A stretch of DNA of 37,322 nt from a virus, in IMG/VR virus record IMGVR_UViG_3300045136_000429. One strand, 5' to 3'. The notes beneath the pieces were generated by a model. It did not search any database. It saw only the letters and a program-made list of their open reading frames with translations, and was not told the DNA's origin. This document shows positions 8,049-37,322 of the stretch, in pieces. Within the stretch, counting starts at the first letter, position 1. Each line of letters opens with the position of its first letter. The position numbers and the translations under genes were made by a program.

Positions 8049-8830
8049 AGCTGATCGAACTCCCAATAACGAAAGTTCAGATTCCGACTCGGAATCCGAT
8101 TCCCGGAGCCGTCGTCCTTGCTCCAGTAGCCCCACTGCCCATCAGGAAGTCCGACGTTGCTTTCTGGGTCGAGCTCCGAGGGGTCGTCCACCCAGATGAC
8201 GCAGCGAACGAAGTTGTGCGCGTTCTTCCACTGCTTGAGCAGTGCAATCGCCTGATCGGACTCCGTCACCGGAACGTTGTGCCCGAGCCCGTATCCAGGA
8301 TCGAGCGCGGTCCAGTCCGGCACGTGTTGGTACGCGGCGCCGTAGACGATCACCCAGATGTCCGTCGGCCGCTCCGTCGCAGCGTTCGGATGCGAGACGC
8401 TGTCCCAGTCCCACGGCGCCGTGAACGTGCGGAGGTTCCCGACCGTGTCGATCTCCGTCCACTGACCGTGCCGATCGACAACACGGACCATCGGGCGCGA
8501 GAGCAGGTACTCGTGCAGCGCGCGAGCGATCGCCTCGTCGGACCCCATGCGCCGGTACCTGTCCAGCCATCCGCGCAGCCGAGCGGCATACTCCTCGTCC
8601 GTGTCGGAGAGGCCTCGGACGATTCCGCGCGTGGCGCCGATCTCACGCAGCGCCGTCGGCGTTCCGCGCCCAGGCCATGCCGCCTGGATTCCCTCGAGCA
8701 GGGCATGAATCAGCGCGTCGCACATGAGCGCGCTCGTCCAGAGGTATTTGGCGGCGAGCTCGAACTTCGGCCGGTAGCTCAGCCACCAAGGCACAATCCG
8801 GTCGATGCCGTCGATCAGCCGCCCAGCCAT
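8045..8830 (-). CDS. Baseplate/tail protein, P2 gpI / Mu gp48-like by position
   Basis: Immediately follows the J-like baseplate gene with a TGATG overlap. Size 261 aa. Assignment is mainly positional. Confidence 0.55.
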   Translation of the reverse strand: MAGRLIDGIDRIVPWWLSYRPKFELAAKYLWTSALMCDALIHALLEGIQAAWPGRGTPTALREIGATRGIVRGLSDTDEEYAARLRGWLDRYRRMGSDEAIARALHEYLLSRPMVRVVDRHGQWTEIDTVGNLRTFTAPWDWDSVSHPNAATERPTDIWVIVYGAAYQHVPDWTALDPGYGLGHNVPVTESDQAIALLKQWKNAHNFVRCVIWVDDPSELDPESNVGLPDGQWGYWSKDDGSGNRIPSRNLNFRYWEFDQL

Positions 8831-20566: not shown

Positions 20567-21849
20567 GACACACCTCCGGTGATCGGCACACCGAACTTAC
20601 GAGCCATCGCGGCGACGTCGACTCGCTCGGGGGCGCCGCTCGTCACGAGCGCGTCGAGCCACTTCTTCACCGCGTCGCCGCCGACGTTCACGGCGTTCGC
20701 CTCCGACGCGAGATCCTTCGGCGGCGTCGCGTCCCATCGCACGCGCGGTCGGTGGAACCAGCCATCGAACGAAAATCGTCGCTGCGCCCAGACAGGGATC
20801 ACCTGCTCGTTCAGCGCGGACGCCATCGTCTCCGCGTCGCCACGGATGAGGTCGTGCTTGACCTTGGCGAAGACGCTATTGTTCGCGAAACCGGTGCCCG
20901 GCTCGGTGGTTCCACGCTGGCCGGAGATCGCGAATATGACGTCCTCCTTCGATGCCTCGAGCTGGTCCTTCATCGAGCTGGGCGTCGTCTGCGACGGGTG
21001 CTCGAGATCGAACTGCCATCCCTCGTTCAAGAGGATGGCCGGGAACGGGCCGAAATGGTTGATCGCGTCGAACGTCTCGCGGACCTCGTCCTCGTTCGCG
21101 CCGTTCGGGACCGTGAGCTTCTTGATCGGGAACGCGAGGGAGTTGTTCCAGGCGCCCAAGTTGAGGAACGCCTGCCTACGTGTGACGTAGGCGAACGCGA
21201 GAGCGCGCCAAAGGCCGTACCTCCACGGGTAATCCGACCCATGCGGGAACGCGAGCAGCCATCGGCCATCGCCCGGCGTCACCGGCTCCTGCTCGCCGTA
21301 CGCCGTGCGGACGTACCACTGATTTTCGCTGAATCGGTACGTGAGGAACTCGGGGTTCCTTCGAACGAGACGAAGCCGTCCGTCCTCGTCCTCGAGGATC
21401 TCCCCGAACATGATGTTCAGGAGCCCGCCGTCACGAGCGATCAGGCTAAGTTCCGACGCCGGGCATAGCGTGTCGAACTCGCGCGAGAGCGCGATCGCGT
21501 ATTCCTCCGCCGGACGCATTGACCCTCGGTACGGTCGACCGTCTGGCGCCTCTTCCACGCTCGCCTCGAAGTACCGAGGCAGGTGGAGCATGCCATCGAA
21601 GCGCGTCGACAGCTCTCCCGCGATCAGGCCGTCGCCGATCAGCGTGTCGGCGATGCGGCCGATCATCTGCATGTTGCCCGTCTCGGCGACGGCCAGCGCG
21701 GCGTCGATGTCCGGGATGTCCCAGTCGACGTACGTGGGCATCCACGGCGTGAGGTTCAACGCGCGCTTGCCGCGTCCGCCCTTCTTGACCTCGCGCGGAC
21801 CCTGCGAACCTCGCACGAAGTTCAGGAATCGACGGACGACATTGGGCAT
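20563..21849 (-). CDS. Portal protein (Mu gp29 / DUF935-like)
   Basis: 428 aa, between the large terminase and protease genes. Confidence 0.8.
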   Translation of the reverse strand: MPNVVRRFLNFVRGSQGPREVKKGGRGKRALNLTPWMPTYVDWDIPDIDAALAVAETGNMQMIGRIADTLIGDGLIAGELSTRFDGMLHLPRYFEASVEEAPDGRPYRGSMRPAEEYAIALSREFDTLCPASELSLIARDGGLLNIMFGEILEDEDGRLRLVRRNPEFLTYRFSENQWYVRTAYGEQEPVTPGDGRWLLAFPHGSDYPWRYGLWRALAFAYVTRRQAFLNLGAWNNSLAFPIKKLTVPNGANEDEVRETFDAINHFGPFPAILLNEGWQFDLEHPSQTTPSSMKDQLEASKEDVIFAISGQRGTTEPGTGFANNSVFAKVKHDLIRGDAETMASALNEQVIPVWAQRRFSFDGWFHRPRVRWDATPPKDLASEANAVNVGGDAVKKWLDALVTSGAPERVDVAAMARKFGVPITGGVS

Positions 21850-27859: not shown

Positions 27860-27889
27860 GATGCTGTGTCGGGGTACACCGGAGGCACA
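27860..27889 (+). repeat. 30-bp direct repeat, left copy (candidate integrase arm-type site)
   Basis: GATGCTGTGTCGGGGTACACCGGAGGCACA matches 28067-28096 at 29 of 30 positions. Confidence 0.75.
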
Positions 27890-27945
27890 ATCGAGGATCG
27901 AAGGCGGCTACCTGGTACGAGTTTTTCCAGCAGCCACGCAAGTTT

Positions 27946-27988
27946 GGGCCGATAGCTCAGTTGGTAGAGCAGCGGACTTTTAATCCTC
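27946..27988 (+). other. Truncated tRNA-Lys(UUU) 5' half (acceptor 5' strand, D-arm, anticodon stem-loop); probable attP core
   Basis: GGGCCGATAGCTCAGTTGGTAGAGCAGCGGACTTTTAATCC is canonical tRNA-Lys sequence up to the anticodon loop. No T-arm or 3' acceptor strand follows. Confidence 0.7.
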
Positions 27989-28066
27989 GTTACCAGCCTA
28001 CGAAGCGTCGCGTACATCGATATTCACCGTGTTTTGGGGGTCCGCATGGGCCGCATTGTCCGGTTG

Positions 28067-28096
28067 GGATGCTGTGTCGGGGTACACCGGGGGCAC
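28067..28096 (+). repeat. 30-bp direct repeat, right copy (candidate integrase arm-type site)
   Basis: GATGCTGTGTCGGGGTACACCGGGGGCACA. Confidence 0.75.
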
Positions 28097-28129
28097 AGTC
28101 CGGCGGATGTGATCGGGAACGGCGAGCCA

Positions 28130-28172: not shown

Positions 28173-29162
28173 TCACGACAGCCTCTCATCGATGAGCCGC
28201 CCCGCGTCCGGGGGCGGGAGCTGTCCGTAGACCTTCTGGAGCATGAGCGTGGAGCCGTGCCCCAAGAACTTCGCGGCGACCTCGTACGGCACGCCCGCGC
28301 GCACCATCCACGTCGCCGCCGACCGGCGGAGCGTCCGCGCGGTGAACTCCGGCACGCCCGCGCGGCGGCACGCCCGGCGGATGTCCCGCCCCATCTTGCC
28401 CCAGGGGCGGAAGAGGTACTTGGCCGGCTCGGGCTCCGCGTACGCCAGCGCGTGACGAAGGAACGGCTCCATCACCCTGATGCGCGGGACCTCGCGTGTG
28501 CGCGTCGACGTCTTCGACCCGCGGACGAGGATGGTCTTCTCCCGCACGTCGCCTCGCTGGGCGGTGAAGATCGACGAGAAGTCGGACGCCGTCGCGATGC
28601 ACCAGGCGACGGCGGCGCCGCGGTGGTTTGGCAGGTGCGCGATCGCGGCCCAGATAGTCTCTGGCGTGACCCAGTCCTTCAGCGGCTCGTACCCGGCGCG
28701 GTAGCGCGGGAGCACCATCTTCGGATCGCGGCCAAACTCACGTGCCCGCTGCGCGCTCTTGAGTGTGAGCCGCAGCGCCGTCAGCTCGCGGTGGATCGAG
28801 TGCGAGTGCGCGCCCTCGGCCTCGCGCTTCTCGACGTACGCCAGCACCTTGTCATGCGTGAGCTTCGCGAGCTTCACGCCGCCGAGCACGCGCACGACGT
28901 GGCCGATCTTCGTCCGGTAGAAGCGCACGGTCTCGGGGTTCATCGCGACGGTGATCTCCCTCAGCCATCGTTCCGCGGCGGACTCGACCGTGGCTTTGTG
29001 CGCACGATAGGTCTCGGGATCAGAGAGCTCGCGCTCCCATCGCGCGGCGATGAGCTGCGCCTTGCGCTTGTTCGTCTCGCGCGTCGACCGCCGGAACTTG
29101 ACGCCGTGCTCAGATCCTCGGGCCCACCAGACACGTCCGCGGAGGTAGAGATGGAGGCGCAT
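28173..29162 (-). CDS. int: Tyrosine-type site-specific integrase
   Basis: N-terminal MRLHLYLRGRVWWARG...RRSTRETNKRKA, a core-binding region, then C-terminal ARTLRRSAATWMV and LGH...KVY catalytic-type motifs. Adjacent to the tRNA fragment. Confidence 0.85.
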   Translation of the reverse strand: MRLHLYLRGRVWWARGSEHGVKFRRSTRETNKRKAQLIAARWERELSDPETYRAHKATVESAAERWLREITVAMNPETVRFYRTKIGHVVRVLGGVKLAKLTHDKVLAYVEKREAEGAHSHSIHRELTALRLTLKSAQRAREFGRDPKMVLPRYRAGYEPLKDWVTPETIWAAIAHLPNHRGAAVAWCIATASDFSSIFTAQRGDVREKTILVRGSKTSTRTREVPRIRVMEPFLRHALAYAEPEPAKYLFRPWGKMGRDIRRACRRAGVPEFTARTLRRSAATWMVRAGVPYEVAAKFLGHGSTLMLQKVYGQLPPPDAGRLIDERLS

Positions 29163-29350
29163 GCTTCGGTCTGCTCTCTCAGGTAGGCATCGAGCGCGCT
29201 CCTGCGGACGCGCACGCATTTCGTCGCGAGCCGGACCATCCCGACGCGCGCCATGATCTCGTAGGCGAACGAGCGCGAGACCCCGAGCAGGTCCATCACG
29301 TCGTGGACCGACAGGGCAGGGTCGTCCGGGCCCAAGTAGCGCTCGGTCAC
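28961..29350 (-). CDS. Excisionase-like (MerR/Xis-type HTH) protein; its reading frame runs about 200 nt into int
   Basis: LSVHDVMDLLGVSRSFAYEIMARVGMVRL..VRVRRSALDAYL is an Xis-type HTH. GTG start at 29350 with a GTGA overlap. The first in-frame stop is at 28961. Confidence 0.55.
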   Translation of the reverse strand: MTERYLGPDDPALSVHDVMDLLGVSRSFAYEIMARVGMVRLATKCVRVRRSALDAYLREQTEACASISTSADVSGGPEDLSTASSSGGRRARRTSARRSSSPRDGSASSLIPRPIVRTKPRSSPPRNDG

Positions 29351-29775: not shown

Positions 29776-29859
29776 TCAGACCTGTGCCACCTGTGCCGTG
29801 CAGTACTGATCCAGCACTGCACGCGCGGCGACCTCGCGCGCCGCGCGCTCGCGCTTCAT
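29776..29859 (-). CDS. Possible 27-aa ORF coupled to the cro-like gene
   Basis: MKRERAAREVAARAVLDQYCTAQVAQV. ATGA overlap with the cro-like stop. Too short to judge otherwise. Confidence 0.25.
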   Translation of the reverse strand: MKRERAAREVAARAVLDQYCTAQVAQV

Positions 29860-30125
29860 CCTGCTTGGCGATGCAGCGACGTGTCCTCGAGGTGGTTGGT
29901 GCTCGACGTTGGCGCCCTCGCCGGCAGGTTCGCTGGCACATCACCCCTCGACCAGCGTTGGATTTTTTGGCGTAGGGCTTCGCGGGGTCGCGCCCCGCGG
30001 CAGTAGTAGCTCACCTGTGACGGCGACACGCGGATGCGCGCGCGCCGCATCGCGAGATGCGCGTCACTCTGCGAGAGCCCGAGCTTGCGGAGGTAGGCCG
30101 TGAAGGCTTCTGACCAGGTCGCCAT
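29856..30125 (-). CDS. Cro-like HTH regulator, first gene of the leftward early operon
   Basis: FTAYLRKLGLSQSDAHLAMRRARIRVSPSQVSYYCRG is HTH-like. Divergent from the CI-like gene. Its ATG lies 6 nt after the -10 element of the PL-like promoter. Confidence 0.6.
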   Translation of the reverse strand: MATWSEAFTAYLRKLGLSQSDAHLAMRRARIRVSPSQVSYYCRGARPREALRQKIQRWSRGDVPANLPARAPTSSTNHLEDTSLHRQAG

Positions 30126-30131
30126 GCCGGA

Positions 30132-30160
30132 ACAGTATGCTGATTCTGATTCCGACGCAA
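30132..30160 (-). promoter_or_regulatory. PL-like early promoter with embedded operator: TTGCGT - 17 nt - TACTGT
   Basis: Minus strand reads TTGCGT cGGAATCAGAATCAGCA TACTGT tccggc ATG. Shares a 23-nt identical core (30131-30153) with the PR-like module. Confidence 0.6.
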
Positions 30161-30207
30161 GGCCCGCGGTGCGGGAGCAATTCAGAATTGTATCCCAGGA
30201 CTGCGCT

Positions 30208-30813
30208 ATGGTTCAGGAAATGGCGACCTCGGCAGCAGCGAAAGAGCCCGAGCCGGTCTCGGAATTCATCCGGATGCTGATAGAGCGCTGGGTGTCCGAG
30301 GGCCGGCGACTGAAAGACCTGGCGGCGGCGGCGGGACTGGCGAAGTCGATGCCTTCGCAGATCAAGGCGCGCACGAGCGACGCGACGCTCTACAGCGCGC
30401 GAAAGCTCGCCAAGCCGCTCGGTTACGCGGACCTTCCTGATCTCGTGAACGCGGCGTGGACATGGTGGCACTCGCGGGACCGGAGCGTGGTGCCGAGCTC
30501 GGCGGCGGAGGCGCCCCAGGCGGTCGCGCTGCGCATCGCGGAACAGTACGGCGTGACAGAGGACCAGATCGAGCGCGTGATGCAGCGGTACCCGCTCGAG
30601 GAGTACTGGCAGATGGACGCGCTCTGGTGGTTGGCGAAGTTCCACGAGGCGCGGACCGAGGACGCCGAGCTCGCGGCGGCGCAGCGGGCGATCGAGAGCG
30701 CGGAGGCCGCCGCCGCGCGGGTCCGGACGCGACGTCAGTCGGAGATCCGACGTGCCGTAAAGGAGCGCGCGTCGGTACAGCATCGTTCGGCCCCCAAGCG
30801 CCACGCTAGCTAG
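30208..30813 (+). CDS. CI-like repressor (N-terminal XRE-type HTH)
   Basis: LKDLAAAAGLAKSMPSQIKARTSDATLYSARKLAKPLGY is HTH-like. Located between the two inverted promoter-operator modules. The start is at 30208 or 30220; no Shine-Dalgarno sequence is visible. Confidence 0.6.
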   Translation: MVQEMATSAAAKEPEPVSEFIRMLIERWVSEGRRLKDLAAAAGLAKSMPSQIKARTSDATLYSARKLAKPLGYADLPDLVNAAWTWWHSRDRSVVPSSAAEAPQAVALRIAEQYGVTEDQIERVMQRYPLEEYWQMDALWWLAKFHEARTEDAELAAAQRAIESAEAAAARVRTRRQSEIRRAVKERASVQHRSAPKRHAS

Positions 30814-31295
30814 CGGCGCACCCCGACTGCGCGCGACGTGAATGTGCAGCCCTTCGGGGCTGTCTTGGCGGGGGGCAGAGCGCCGGAGTTGAGGCCCTCA
30901 AACCCGGTGGCGCTGAAGGTCCACGAGAACTGAAGCGTGCCCGTTGCGTTGTTCGGATCGAGCGCGTCGGTCACGTTCAGGTCGCACTTTGTTTGCACCG
31001 TGCAAGCATCGACGATGTCGCCCGCGCATGCGCCGGAGGCGCCTTGGATCTCGATGGCGAAGTCCGGACCGCGGAGGCCGGGTGGCTTCGCCGTGATCGT
31101 CACGACCTGCTGGGCACCGGCGTTCGGGTTCGTTGCGGGGTCGAAGAGGTCTTCGCAGCCCGCGCTCTGCGTCTCCAGCGTCGCCTCAAGCGTGTAGGTC
31201 CCCTCGATCTTGCATCCCCCACCCGCGCCGGACGCCCCCGGCTCCGATGCGCACGCGCTCGCGAAGAGCAGCGCCACCCCCATCGCCATCCGCAT
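30810..31295 (-). CDS. Lipoprotein in the immunity region (superinfection-exclusion candidate)
   Basis: Signal peptide with lipobox MRMAMGVALLFASAC. The mature part is rich in paired cysteines. Convergent with the CI-like gene. Confidence 0.65.
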   Translation of the reverse strand: MRMAMGVALLFASACASEPGASGAGGGCKIEGTYTLEATLETQSAGCEDLFDPATNPNAGAQQVVTITAKPPGLRGPDFAIEIQGASGACAGDIVDACTVQTKCDLNVTDALDPNNATGTLQFSWTFSATGFEGLNSGALPPAKTAPKGCTFTSRAVGVRR

Positions 31296-31358
31296 GGTCG
31301 TTAGACTCGCACAAAACGCGGAAGTCGCACGCGAATTCAGAATGCTGATTCAGACGCC

Positions 31359-31387
31359 TTGACTAGGAATCAGAATCAGCATACTGT
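31359..31387 (+). promoter_or_regulatory. PR-like early promoter with embedded operator: TTGACT - 17 nt - TACTGT
   Basis: TTGACT (31359-31364), spacer aGGAATCAGAATCAGCA, TACTGT (31382-31387). The 23-nt core at 31366-31388 is the reverse complement of 30131-30153. Confidence 0.6.
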
Positions 31388-31420
31388 TGGGGCTGTGACG
31401 CGCACCGCATCGGCGTTGGT

Positions 31421-31672
31421 ATGGGGAGAAAGGCATTGGTCATGGGAAAGCCGGTAACGCAGACGACGGAGCGAGTGGCTCGCGCGACGATCGACAGCGT
31501 CTCGAAGAACGCTCTGGCGGACCTTGTGATCGATCTGCTGCGGCAGCACGCCGGAAACGAGAACCTCGACGGAGAGGAACTGGCGCAGGCGTTCGTGGAG
31601 GCGTTCGCGCCGATCGCAATCGCCCGCGGCGACCGGCCGGCGAAGGTCTGGAAGCCCAAGGGAGAGCGATGA
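31421..31672 (+). CDS. Hypothetical early protein (83 aa; alternative start at 31442)
   Basis: First ORF after the PR-like promoter. GGAGAA lies before the ATG at 31442. High GC3. Confidence 0.55.
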   Translation: MGRKALVMGKPVTQTTERVARATIDSVSKNALADLVIDLLRQHAGNENLDGEELAQAFVEAFAPIAIARGDRPAKVWKPKGER

Positions 31673-32412: not shown

Positions 32413-32484
32413 GCGATGGCGATGCAAAGCGCAGCTCGAGGCGGCGACGGAGTTGGACGGGCTGGAGAGAGAGGAGCAGACGGT

Positions 32485-33408
32485 ATGAGCACGGCGACGA
32501 ACGGACAGATGGTGGTGCATGCGGGGGAGCGCCCGGTGCTGGCGAAGGCGAGCGACCCGACGCGGGCATTCGAGCCGCGGGACATCGACGAGGGGTACGA
32601 GCTGGCGAAGCTCCTCGTGGCCTCTGGGTTGATGCCGCGTGGCGTGCAGCGGCCCGAAGCGGCGTTCGCGATCATCGCCGCGGGGCGCGAGCTCGGGCTG
32701 ACCGCGATGCAGTCGCTCCGGTCGATCCACATCGTCGAGGGCAATCCGACGCTCTCAGCGGACCTCGTCGCCGCGCTCTGCAAGAGCCGCTCGGACGTCT
32801 GCCTGTACTTCCGACTCGTCGAGAGTACCGACAAGATCGCCACGTACGAGACGCACCGGCGCGGCGAGCCAGCGCCCACGTCGATGTCCTTCACGTGGGA
32901 GGACGCGCAGCGCGCGGGCGTGACCGGGAAGGACAACTGGAAGAAGTATCCGGCGGCGATGCTGCGGGCGCGGTGCATCACGGCGCTCGCGCGCGCGGTG
33001 TACCCGGACCTCGCCATGGGCGTCTACGACCCGGACGAGGTGGCGCCCGAGCCGGTCTACGCCGGGCAGGCGGAGATCGAGAGGCCCGCGGCGCCGCCGC
33101 CGGCACCGAGGAGCGAGCCGCGCGTGGACAGCGGGACCTTCGACAAGCTTTGCGCACGCCTCGACGCGGCAGAGACGACGCAGGCGATCAACGCGATCGC
33201 GAGCGCGACGGCGAAGGCCCACAAGGCCGGGCAGATCACGGACGAGCAGCTCGAGACGCTGAAGGGCGCCGTCACGAAGAAGCGCGCCCTCGTCGGCGGA
33301 GCGAAGCCCACGCCGCCGCCGTCCGCGCCTGCGCAGGACGACGGGTCGGCGTACGACGACGCGGCAGAGGCGGAGGCTGAGGCGATGGCGTCTCAGTACG
33401 ACCAGTGA
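32485..33408 (+). CDS. recT: RecT-family single-strand annealing protein
   Basis: GLTAMQSLRSIHIVEGNPTLSADL ... WKKYPAAMLRARCITALARAVYPDLAMGVYDPDE follows the RecT pattern. GAGGAG lies before the ATG at 32485. Confidence 0.8.
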   Translation: MSTATNGQMVVHAGERPVLAKASDPTRAFEPRDIDEGYELAKLLVASGLMPRGVQRPEAAFAIIAAGRELGLTAMQSLRSIHIVEGNPTLSADLVAALCKSRSDVCLYFRLVESTDKIATYETHRRGEPAPTSMSFTWEDAQRAGVTGKDNWKKYPAAMLRARCITALARAVYPDLAMGVYDPDEVAPEPVYAGQAEIERPAAPPPAPRSEPRVDSGTFDKLCARLDAAETTQAINAIASATAKAHKAGQITDEQLETLKGAVTKKRALVGGAKPTPPPSAPAQDDGSAYDDAAEAEAEAMASQYDQ

Positions 33409-34481
33409 GGGTCACCGCGAGCAAGGTCGGCCTCCTCGCTCACTGCCAGTGGTGGGCGCGACCCGAGGCGAAGTGGGAGTACACGACGTCGGCGGCGGCG
33501 GACCGCGGAACTCGCTTCCACGACGCGATCGCTCGCTACACCGAATCGCGCGAGCGCGAGGAGGTGGCCGAGGACATCCGGGAGGAGTACGAGCACGCGT
33601 GCGCGTGGGTCGACTCGCTCGGCGTGGCGCCCGACCCGTCTCGGCTGCGGGTCGAGACGGCGTTTGCGTGGGACGCGGCGCACGACGCGGCGGAGATCAT
33701 CGGCGGCGATCGCGACTACTCGAGGGCCAACGGCCGCCTCTGCGGGACCGCCGACCTCACCCTCGTCACGACCGCCTACGGCAAGCCGATCGCGGTCACG
33801 GTCTGGGACTGGAAGACGGGCGACGGCTCCGGTGCGGGCCCGCAGCTCCGGGCGCTCGGCCTCATGGCGGCGCGCGCGTACGGCGTAGAGCAGGCGACCG
33901 TCGCGGCGCTGGAGGTCCGCAAGAGCGGCGTGACGGAGGTGGCGCGCGAAGACCTCGACGCGTTCGCGCTCGCGGGCGTCGCCGGGGAGCTCGCCGAGCA
34001 GCTCGCGGCCATCGAGGACGCGGAGCCCCAGCCGGGGAGCCACTGCGGTGAGCTGTACTGCCCGGCGCGGCTGCACTGCCCGCTCGGGACGACAGCCATC
34101 GCTCAGGTCGTGGACGTCATCCCGGCAGAGGCGATCGTGCGCCGGCCCGAGTGGCGCATCACCGACCCGATCACGACGGCGGAGCAGGCGATCCTGACGG
34201 TCGACGTGCTGCGCCTGATGGGCGCCTGGATCGACGCGAAGAAGGACGAGATCAAGGCGCTGGTCCCGCCCGATGGGTGGGCGACAGAGGACGGCCGTGT
34301 GCTGCGCGAGACAAAGGCGACGGTGCAGGCGTTTGACAAGCACAAGGTGATCGCGCTCTGCAAGCAGTTGGGCGCGACCGACGAGCAGATCGCGAGCCTT
34401 TACTACACCTTTGAGAAGAGCAACGGCCTGCGTGTGAGCGGCGGCTCGACGAGGCCGCGCACGCGGAAGAAGGCGGCTTAG
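33405..34481 (+). CDS. PD-(D/E)XK exonuclease, Cas4/RecB-like (recombination partner of RecT)
   Basis: GTADLTLV...VWDWKTG forms the D...D/E-x-K motif. An N-terminal Cys (LLAHCQWW) plus C-terminal HCGELYCPARLHCP resemble a Cas4-type four-Cys cluster. GTGA overlap with recT. Confidence 0.7.
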   Translation: MRVTASKVGLLAHCQWWARPEAKWEYTTSAAADRGTRFHDAIARYTESREREEVAEDIREEYEHACAWVDSLGVAPDPSRLRVETAFAWDAAHDAAEIIGGDRDYSRANGRLCGTADLTLVTTAYGKPIAVTVWDWKTGDGSGAGPQLRALGLMAARAYGVEQATVAALEVRKSGVTEVAREDLDAFALAGVAGELAEQLAAIEDAEPQPGSHCGELYCPARLHCPLGTTAIAQVVDVIPAEAIVRRPEWRITDPITTAEQAILTVDVLRLMGAWIDAKKDEIKALVPPDGWATEDGRVLRETKATVQAFDKHKVIALCKQLGATDEQIASLYYTFEKSNGLRVSGGSTRPRTRKKAA

Positions 34482-36706: not shown

Positions 36707-37282
36707 ATGACGCACGCCGAGCTCGTGACCTTCGCCGCGGGCTGGCTGCGCCGCACGCGCCGCCACCCGATCGTGCTCTCCGACGTCACCGTGTTCGTCA
36801 CGCACGAGCAGCCGGACGTGATCGGCTGGTCGAACAACGGCTCCTCGACGCTCATCGAGTGCAAGGCCTCGCGTAGCGACTTCCTCCGCGACGCGCGCAA
36901 GTGGTTCCGGCGCGCCTCGCACATCGGCATGGGGCAGCATCGCTGGTTCTGCGCGCCCGCCGGGCTCATCGCCGCCGACGAACTCCCGCCGCGATGGGGG
37001 CTCATCGAGCCGGTCGGCCGGCGCGTCCGCGTCGTCCGGACGGCCGAGAGCTTCTATGAGTGGAACGAGCGCGCCGAGCTGGCGCTGCTCGTCAACGCGC
37101 TCCGCCGCGCGACGGAGGGGTGGGGACGCCGGATGTTCGGCGAGATCGCGCCGCCGGCGGCCGACGGCGACCCGCACCCGACCGCGTCGAAGATCATCCG
37201 CGACCTGCGCGCGGAGAACGTTCGGCTCCGCGATCGCCTGCGGGCGCTCGAGACGGAGGCCGCGCTCGCGAGGACGACATGA
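36707..37282 (+). CDS. PD-(D/E)XK nuclease-fold protein, MmcB-like
   Basis: [26 protein letters not shown] forms the D ... E-x-K core, followed by [11 protein letters not shown]. The 3' end lies in the 127-nt terminal repeat, so on the circle it is followed by the ORF at 84. Confidence 0.6.
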
Positions 37283-37322
37283 GCCCAGCGAACGACGAGA
37301 TCCTCTACCGCGTCACGCGACG
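37196..37322. repeat. Terminal direct repeat copy 2, identical to 1-127
   Basis: Base-for-base identity read by eye. Confidence 0.9.

Follow-up and report, generated by a model that had tools for sequence, protein, structure and literature searches.

The DNA analysed here, referred to below as the window, is the whole 37,322-nt stretch of the IMG/VR virus record IMGVR_UViG_3300045136_000429. This work concerns its immunity region, in which two inverted copies of a promoter-like sequence bracket a segment of 1.2 kb. Within this segment lie a repressor-like gene (30220..30813, plus strand), encoding 197 amino acids (aa), or 201 aa when read from ATG 30208, and a lipoprotein-like gene (30810..31295, minus strand; 161 aa) that is convergent with it. 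To the left, the first gene of the leftward arm (29856..30125, minus strand) encodes an 89-aa Cro-like protein with a predicted XRE-type helix-turn-helix (HTH) and is conserved in relatives. To the right, the first open reading frame (ORF) of the rightward arm (31421..31672, plus strand) encodes 83 aa, or 76 aa from ATG 31442, which follows GGGGAGAAAGG; this gene is not conserved among relatives. Each of the two repeat-containing modules carries a proximal (O1) and a distal (O2) candidate operator; OL and P_L denote the operators and promoter of the left module, and OR and P_R those of the right. The repeats are probably conserved promoter-operator modules of a lambda-style lysis-lysogeny switch with an undescribed family of repressors.

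The plus strand carries the 23-bp sequence GGAATCAGAATCAGCATACTGTT at 31366-31388, and an exact inverted copy is found at 30131-30153. Both copies, reported by a first-pass annotation of this DNA, were confirmed by direct reading. No third copy was found in the window with up to 3 mismatches allowed, and 100 dinucleotide-preserving shuffles gave 0 matches. The inverted repeat reaches 38 nt with 87% complementarity (30126-30163 / 31356-31393). The promoter-like hexamers also lie where that annotation had placed them: on the right, TTGACT (31359-31364) and TACTGT (31382-31387) separated by 17 nt; on the left, on the minus strand, TTGCGT (30160-30155) and TACTGT (30137-30132) with the same spacing. 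The inverted CTGATTC at 31345-31351 is likewise present. Other details had to be revised. What had been described as a tandem GAATCAG GAATCAG is actually GAATCAGAATCAG, a sequence of 13 nt with a 6-nt period, in which one G is common to both heptamers. The element AATTCAGAAT, proposed for both sides, does occur at 30179-30188 and 31334-31343, but its right copy is no separate element, being the left half of an 18-bp palindrome, AATTCAG-AATG-CTGATTC (31334-31351). Taken by itself, the heptamer GAATCAG shows no enrichment in the window (7 observed vs 3.8 expected). Clusters of exact half-sites are confined to the two intergenic regions, in the window as in the loci of relatives, and the two further clusters of the window (8078-8102 and 21319-21337) consist of one-mismatch matches only. 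The non-random signal is the clustering of half-sites, not the frequency of GAATCAG.

The evidence that carries the interpretation comes from related phages. As relatives, we took the contigs encoding 12 homologues of the 197-aa protein and 2 loci from a collection scan; the 13 loci with both modules were aligned with the window, giving 14 sequences per alignment (A3 for the right module, A4 for the left). Both modules recur in these 13 metagenomic phage contigs, whose flanking genes are unrelated and whose repressor-like proteins are 45-68% identical, so the earlier view of the modules as units firing outward from an island with a repressor-like gene is supported. Gene order does not change among these loci. 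A small HTH gene on the minus strand is followed by the left module and the repressor-like gene; after a variable slot come the right module and early genes on the plus strand. In relatives (L002, L003, L053-L057) the variable slot holds unrelated genes on either strand (e.g., DUF6232), or none. On the right, the columns with a majority of at least 85% are TCAG and CTGATT in O2, CTTGAC at the -35, and ATCAGAATCAG together with CTG in O1. On the left, they are ATTCTGATT in OL2, ATCAGAATCAGCATACTG in OL1, CATG at the start of the small gene, and CCA at the start of the repressor gene; the left -35, TTGaC, falls slightly under the threshold. The sequence between the conserved blocks is not conserved.

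In this family, O1 consists of three half-sites, two direct and one inverted, with the layout GAATCAGAATCAG-CATA-CTGxxxx, which covers the spacer and the -10; its proximal core, AATCAGAATCAGCATACTG, is nearly invariant in relatives. O2 has the consensus GAATCAG-N4-CTGATTC and lies immediately upstream of the -35, with the TTGAC-type -35 between O2 and O1. The family consensus site is an 18-bp palindrome, GAATCAG-wATk-CTGATTC. In the window, the proximal left operator OL1 (30129..30152, minus strand) comprises an imperfect 18-bp palindrome, GGAACAGTATGCTGATTC (30129-30146), and an extra half-site, with which the minus strand reads GAATCAGAATCAG at 30140-30152; it overlaps the spacer and -10 of P_L. 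The distal left site OL2 (30179..30189, plus strand), 50 bp from OL1, reads AATTCAGAATT, and GAATCAGAATC in relatives. On the right, the distal operator OR2 (31334..31351) is the palindrome described above and ends 7 nt upstream of the -35. The proximal operator OR1 (31367..31390, plus strand) combines GAATCAGAATCAG (31367-31379) with the 18-mer GAATCAGCATACTGTTGG (31373-31390), whose right half is degenerate, and overlaps the spacer and -10 of P_R.

A log-odds site matrix, built from the relatives' 18 sites only and with the window excluded, scored 29.9 (31334), 25.3 (30129), 18.6 (31373), 12.2 (31367), 12.2 (30135), and 6.1 (30179) in the window. These six best matches all lie within the two modules, and the next score in 37 kb is 4.0. 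Mononucleotide shuffles gave a mean maximum score of 8.4, and one shuffle gave 24.1; the weight therefore rests on the co-location of the matches and not on single scores. O2 and O1 stand 38-40 bp apart in the right modules (13 loci) and 48-50 bp apart in the left modules, where the spacing is thus longer by about one helical turn. The distance between the modules varies among relatives from about 0.7 to 1.5 kb, which speaks neither for nor against looping.

Further evidence for conservation of the operators came from an artefact of gene calling. Among the ORFs of homologues, 16/27 had been over-extended by gene callers through the operator, which is then translated as 'QYADS', while the distal site is translated as 'ESES', 'RIRI' or 'FRI'. 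The seemingly conserved N-terminal peptide 'QYADSDS...ESES/RIRI' (homologues P0002-P0026; window 30100-30219) is false, being translated operator DNA. The occurrence of 'QYADS' in such ORFs therefore indicates that the operator is conserved in further independent contigs, and the present analysis corrects this systematic over-extension of the repressor ORF.

Outside metagenomes, the family was not encountered. The repressor protein had no match in 185,579 species genomes, and none was found among GenBank phages by protein and distant-DNA searches. The operator 20-mer GAATCAGAATCAGNATNCTG gave 35 single matches in the same species genomes, a number close to the chance expectation for 18 specified bases in 596 Gb; no match was accompanied by a second site, and none lay in a high-GC myxobacterial context. 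A DNA-pattern scan of viral contigs and protein-alignment scans of viral and metagenome collections added few loci only. Given the lack of a match in species genomes, the family is visible only in metagenomes and IMG/VR. All 34 homologues of the 197-aa protein are metagenomic, and none has a Pfam family; one of them lies in a metagenome-assembled genome (MAG) of Polyangiaceae.

The putative leftward promoter P_L (30132..30160, minus strand) and rightward promoter P_R (31359..31387, plus strand) are formed by the hexamers given above. Both have an alternative -10, CATACT, with a spacer of 15 (30139-30134, minus strand, for P_L; 31380-31385, plus strand, for P_R). The predicted promoters rest on conservation across phages, not on match quality: in 14 left loci, the -35 (TTGnCn) and the -10 stand at a fixed distance from the start codon. 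TACTGT, taken as the -10 in the first-pass annotation, is present and is an acceptable alternative in this phage, but the spacer table of the family favours CATACT, 2 nt upstream, which appears the more likely -10 of the family. The hexamers found at the -10 position across the family are CATACT, TATTCT, TATTAT, and TATCAT; the modal spacer from TTGACn is 16, and that of the window is 15. Whichever hexamer serves, CATACT or TACTGT, the operator covers it. The idea that the two alternate as the -10 with compensating -35 spacing found no clean support in the spacer table.

The left module contains a third predicted promoter, missed previously. In 14/14 loci, a TAnnnT motif stands exactly 7 nt before the ATG or GTG of the repressor-like gene; its T, A, and final T are nearly invariant, and its inner bases vary. 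In the window, this predicted -10 of the repressor-gene promoter P_M is TATGGT (30207..30212, plus strand), 7 nt before ATG 30220. The same ATG aligns with the invariant ATG/GTG of relatives, and the repressor gene therefore probably starts at 30220, its mRNA being leaderless. With respect to the predicted P_M start, OL2 spans about -41 to -31 and overlaps the -35 region of P_M. The ATG of the small gene is similarly close to its promoter; in the window, it is 6 nt downstream of TACTGT and 8 nt downstream of CATACT. In 13/14 left modules, the start codon follows the -10 (CATACT) by 7-10 nt, and it is similarly close in most right modules. Because the start codons are so near to the -10, leaderless or near-leaderless mRNAs are predicted for P_L, for P_M and, in most relatives, for P_R. 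The window itself departs from this on its rightward arm, where a leader of about 28-49 nt is predicted. Its predicted transcription starts lie at or within 2 nt of 30125 (minus strand) for P_L, at 30220 (plus strand) for P_M, and at about 31392-31394 (plus strand) for P_R.

Two other sequence features lie near these gene starts and ends. The first 10 nt of the divergent genes are nearly alike (ATGGCGACCT) and form a 20-nt inverted repeat (30106-30125 / 30220-30239, 85%), and both proteins start with MAT; the repeat shows no obvious conservation in relatives and may be due to chance. Past the stop codon of the repressor gene, at a distance of 34 nt and within the 3' end of the lipoprotein ORF that converges on it, the sequence CAGCCC-TTCG-GGGCTG (30847-30862) can form a GC-rich hairpin with a perfect 6-bp stem and a TTCG loop. 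This hairpin might act as a terminator of the repressor transcript, but it has no clear T-tract. An Rfam scan of the immunity region detected no RNA family.

The 197-aa protein resembles XRE-type regulators in its predicted fold. The AlphaFold model of its 201-aa form (pLDDT 87.5) shows an N-terminal helical HTH domain, a small second helical domain, and a terminal helix of 57 residues. The best fold matches of this model in the PDB are DdrO, Stl, SinR, C.Esp1396I, ClgR, HigA, and the N-terminal domain (NTD) of the lambda repressor, with Foldseek probabilities of 0.9-0.99, a TM of 0.6 on the HTH domain, and sequence identities of 10-25%. No confident structural counterpart was found for the second helical domain and the terminal helix. 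The protein has no Peptidase_S24 match in Pfam and no NCBIfam family, and its model is all-helical. The label 'CI-like', given to it earlier, thus fits its position but not its composition, as an S24/LexA-type cleavage domain is missing. Across the homologues, the HTH segment GLAKSMPSQIKARTSDASFYSA is almost invariant, with S47, S50, Q51, K53, and T56 fully so. Since the recognition helix of this HTH is nearly invariant, like the operator, a single repressor shutting both arms is the most economical explanation of the two modules.

The 89-aa protein belongs to a small-protein family that we compiled from the fetched loci of relatives. Members of this family match HTH_3 (1.8e-6), P22_Cro (0.006), and YdaS (0.008) in Pfam. 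The model of the window's protein (pLDDT 82) superposes at about 2 Å on SinR, DdrO, the TP901-1 CI NTD, P2 C, P22 c2, and Cro proteins; for the 197-aa and 89-aa proteins together, superpositions on DdrO, SinR, C.Esp1396I, and P22 c2 give 2-3.5 Å at probabilities of 0.9-0.99. A profile search of the PDB with the small-protein alignment returned only spurious antibody matches.

These features suggest how the switch may operate. In the lysogen, the 197-aa protein would occupy O1 and O2 on both sides, as dimers or as higher oligomers, and exclude RNA polymerase from P_L and P_R. When active, P_L would transcribe the Cro-like gene, then an excisionase-like gene and the integrase, possibly continuing into the minus-strand structural genes, and P_R would transcribe RecT, an exonuclease, and the remainder of the plus-strand arm. 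P_M, inside the left module, would transcribe the repressor gene, and the position of OL2 over the P_M -35 region would allow autoregulation. The 89-aa protein made from P_L is a likely counter-regulator, whose target may be the same operators or the repressor protein. The analysis shows the repeats and how they cluster, their conserved and fixed geometry in 14 phages, the two modelled HTH folds, and the lack of a protease domain; the identity of the binding protein, the direction of regulation, the transcription starts, and cooperativity are what we infer. The PL/PR labels of the first-pass annotation turn out to be swapped relative to lambda, although its symmetry argument stands. The left module matches the lambda OR, the region in which cI and cro diverge. 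The right module matches OL, being positioned past the accessory gene and predicted to control the recombination genes.

Several results weigh against this interpretation. A scan with a strict sigma-70 consensus found 0 sites, and the two promoters match it at 8/12 and 7/12 positions. In the window, O1 has a degenerate right half (CTGTTGG, CTGTTCC). For both window proteins, the Pfam HTH_3 match is sub-threshold (E of about 0.06), and the Foldseek E-values of both models are not significant (0.02-0.5). The most divergent relative, L005 (the Polyangiaceae MAG contig WQYX01000039.1, 4745-4800), carries TTGACA-N17-TAATGT with a tandem GAATCAGAATCA, has lost the inverted half-site, and has a different palindrome, CAAAACAAAATGTTGTTTTG, at the O2 position; this palindrome may reflect a changed specificity or a second regulator. 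Covariation between the repressor HTH and the GAATCAG half-sites, which had been proposed as a check, was not observed, both being invariant, and the sites are not tied to one protein. Finally, the small protein's helix SQVSYWCRG is fairly conserved, so the small protein could be the main binder.

The last point leads to the alternative that the 89-aa protein is the main binder and the true immunity repressor, like the small C repressor of P2. The 197-aa protein would then be an establishment regulator, the target of an antirepressor, or a replication or partition factor, or it would act via the small protein, as in the CI:Mor pair of TP901-1. The gene of the 89-aa protein adjoins OL1 in at least 11/14 loci, the protein has an XRE/Cro-like fold with P2 C and the TP901-1 CI NTD among its structural matches, and its helix SQVSYWCRG is largely conserved. 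Yet it is the promoter of this very gene that OL1 would occlude most directly, and a maintenance repressor made only from the promoter it shuts, in an operon with an excisionase-like gene and the integrase, would be an unusual design. Its recognition helix varies (S/H, R/H/Q in L005, L007, and L057), yet in two of these loci, L007 and L057, the operators remain perfect consensus and show no change that would parallel the variation of the helix. By comparison, the 197-aa gene has a conserved promoter of its own, and the HTH that it encodes is more strictly invariant. Overall, we regard a leading role of the small protein as unlikely.

Still less likely is that the sites are bound by a global regulator of the host, such as an SOS- or stress-type repressor, co-opted by this phage family; we consider it quite improbable. 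It would account for the near identity of the operator core in 14 phages that have unrelated flanking genes and repressor-like proteins of only 45-68% identity. The missing cleavage domain of the repressor candidate also speaks for it. However, the recognition helix of the phage protein is equally invariant, which suffices to explain why the operator does not vary; the HTH genes flanked by the sites are those of the phage, in a classic arrangement; and the operator 20-mer shows no regulon-like presence in the species genomes, a scan that did not extend to the host genome itself. The Myxococcus LexA box, CTRHAMRYBYGTTCAGS, appears to have its half-sites in a different arrangement. It is also conceivable that the 38-nt copies are terminal inverted repeats, or the product of a recent duplication of a mobile 'immunity cassette', without regulatory function, given that they bracket a 1.2-kb segment whose content is mosaic among relatives. 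We give this explanation almost no credence. A transposase, expected between the terminal inverted repeats of transposons or insertion sequences (IS), is lacking in 30160-31355. Conservation is restricted to short blocks at fixed spacing (the -35, the -10, half-sites, and start codons) rather than extending over whole arms, each side has a second site, O2, of different geometry, and the arrangement persists over deep divergence. A lambda-style switch run by the 197-aa protein remains the reading that we prefer.

The features of the lambda immunity region used for comparison are those summarised in PMC11149083. As in lambda, a repressor and an accessory gene lie between early promoters directed outward (putative ones in this phage), and related operators of partly palindromic sequence overlap each promoter. 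The divergent repressor and Cro-like genes (here 30220-30813, plus strand, and 29856-30125, minus strand) have one operator set between them, and the recombination genes (here RecT and the exonuclease) are found on the arm of the repressor-distal operator set. There are also differences. Lambda has three abutting 17-bp operators per side, whereas here there are two per side, about 20 bp apart, with the -35 between them. The lambda repressor contains a LexA-like S24 protease domain, whereas the protein described here is all-helical and has no S24 domain. Here, the accessory and repressor genes converge and are not co-transcribed, and there is no detectable sequence homology between the two systems. 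As further background, the lambda PRM transcript is leaderless, and the repressor mRNA is predicted to be leaderless here as well.

The protein architecture is nearer to the CI/Mor system of TP901-1 than to lambda. The CI of the lactococcal phage TP901-1 (as that of staphylococcal phi13) has an N-terminal XRE-type HTH, an all-helical C-terminal region, and no autocleavage site, and TP901-1 encodes a small HTH protein divergently and has several related palindromic operators across its switch region (PMC11149083). The domain layout of the repressor described here is compatible with this organisation, and a small divergent HTH gene is shared, features known in the present case from sequence and models. 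On the other hand, the OR, OL, and OD of TP901-1 lie around a single divergent region, whereas here a second module stands on the far side of the repressor gene. Mor is unable to bind DNA by itself, the two systems share no sequence similarity, and their hosts belong to different phyla. DdrO, SinR, Stl, and C.Esp1396I, XRE-family regulators whose C-terminal oligomerisation domains are helical, gave the best structural matches to the 201-aa model, with Foldseek E-values of 0.02-0.2; they differ in that the context here is phage immunity. Controller proteins and SinR bind paired palindromes overlapping promoters.

In several relatives, antirepressor-type genes (KilA-N, P22_AR_N, and Phage_pRha) are located on the left arm downstream of the Cro-like gene (L054 1841-2683, L055 2090-2737, L056 1922-2572, and L057 1737-2498), and these are a possible clue to the inactivation of a repressor that has no protease domain. 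The window has no antirepressor-type gene downstream of its Cro-like gene. One relative also encodes a LexA_DNA_bind protein (L054 1-355).

The first 127 nt of the window are identical to its last 127 nt (1-127 / 37196-37322), and identity ends at 128, which resembles an assembler k-mer overlap; the window therefore represents the complete, circular genome of a temperate tailed phage, about 37,195 bp in length, rather than a prophage embedded in host DNA. The minus strand encodes terminase, portal, tail sheath, baseplate, and tape-measure proteins. A tyrosine integrase is located at 28173-29219, RecT at 32416-33408 (plus strand), and a PD-(D/E)XK exonuclease at 33405-34481 (plus strand). In a gene map based on GC content at third codon positions (GC3), minus-strand genes extend from 30125 down to about 3.5 kb, and plus-strand genes from 31.4 kb across the assembly junction to about 3.6 kb. 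From these gene directions, the switch region is the single divergence point of the whole genome.

The lipoprotein-like gene has a GC3 of 0.86, which marks it as a real coding sequence. Its product begins with MRMAMGVALLFASAC, by reading of the sequence an apparent signal peptide and lipobox; library searches gave no family match for this protein, and no convincing promoter for the gene was seen by eye. As the occupant of the accessory slot (30810-31295), it might serve superinfection exclusion or lysogenic conversion. Beside the integrase, 27860-28100 is a probable attP region. It contains a tRNA-like match (27946-28000, plus strand) that is below threshold (Rfam RF00005, 27.4 bits vs a gathering score of 29), and ARAGORN found no tRNA. 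The match is flanked by a 33-nt direct repeat (27860-27892 / 28068-28100, 94%), whose copies could be arm-type sites of the integrase. The host probably belongs to Polyangiaceae or a similar high-GC group.

The design described here is a further instance of the lambda principle, not a new principle, and as such it is unsurprising to phage specialists; what is mildly unusual is the clade-wide frozen operator, the O1 of three half-sites, and the predicted leaderless switch transcripts. How lysogeny is controlled in the phages of high-GC soil bacteria of the myxobacterial kind has hardly been described. For this group, the analysis provides a comparative map of four sites with a consensus, three promoters with predicted leaderless starts, and two candidate regulators, and such a map could serve as a toolkit of repressible promoters and operators for myxobacteria-like hosts. 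A bolder proposal, which we put forward tentatively and with more doubt than confidence, is that these phages form a mosaic clade that infects myxobacteria-like hosts and has undescribed, non-cleavable XRE-type repressors, three leaderless switch promoters, and an operator, AATCAGAATCAG, frozen throughout the clade. If it is true, the three-half-site O1 could offer alternative registers for the repressor and the Cro-like protein, and the frozen operator would imply cross-immunity across the whole clade.

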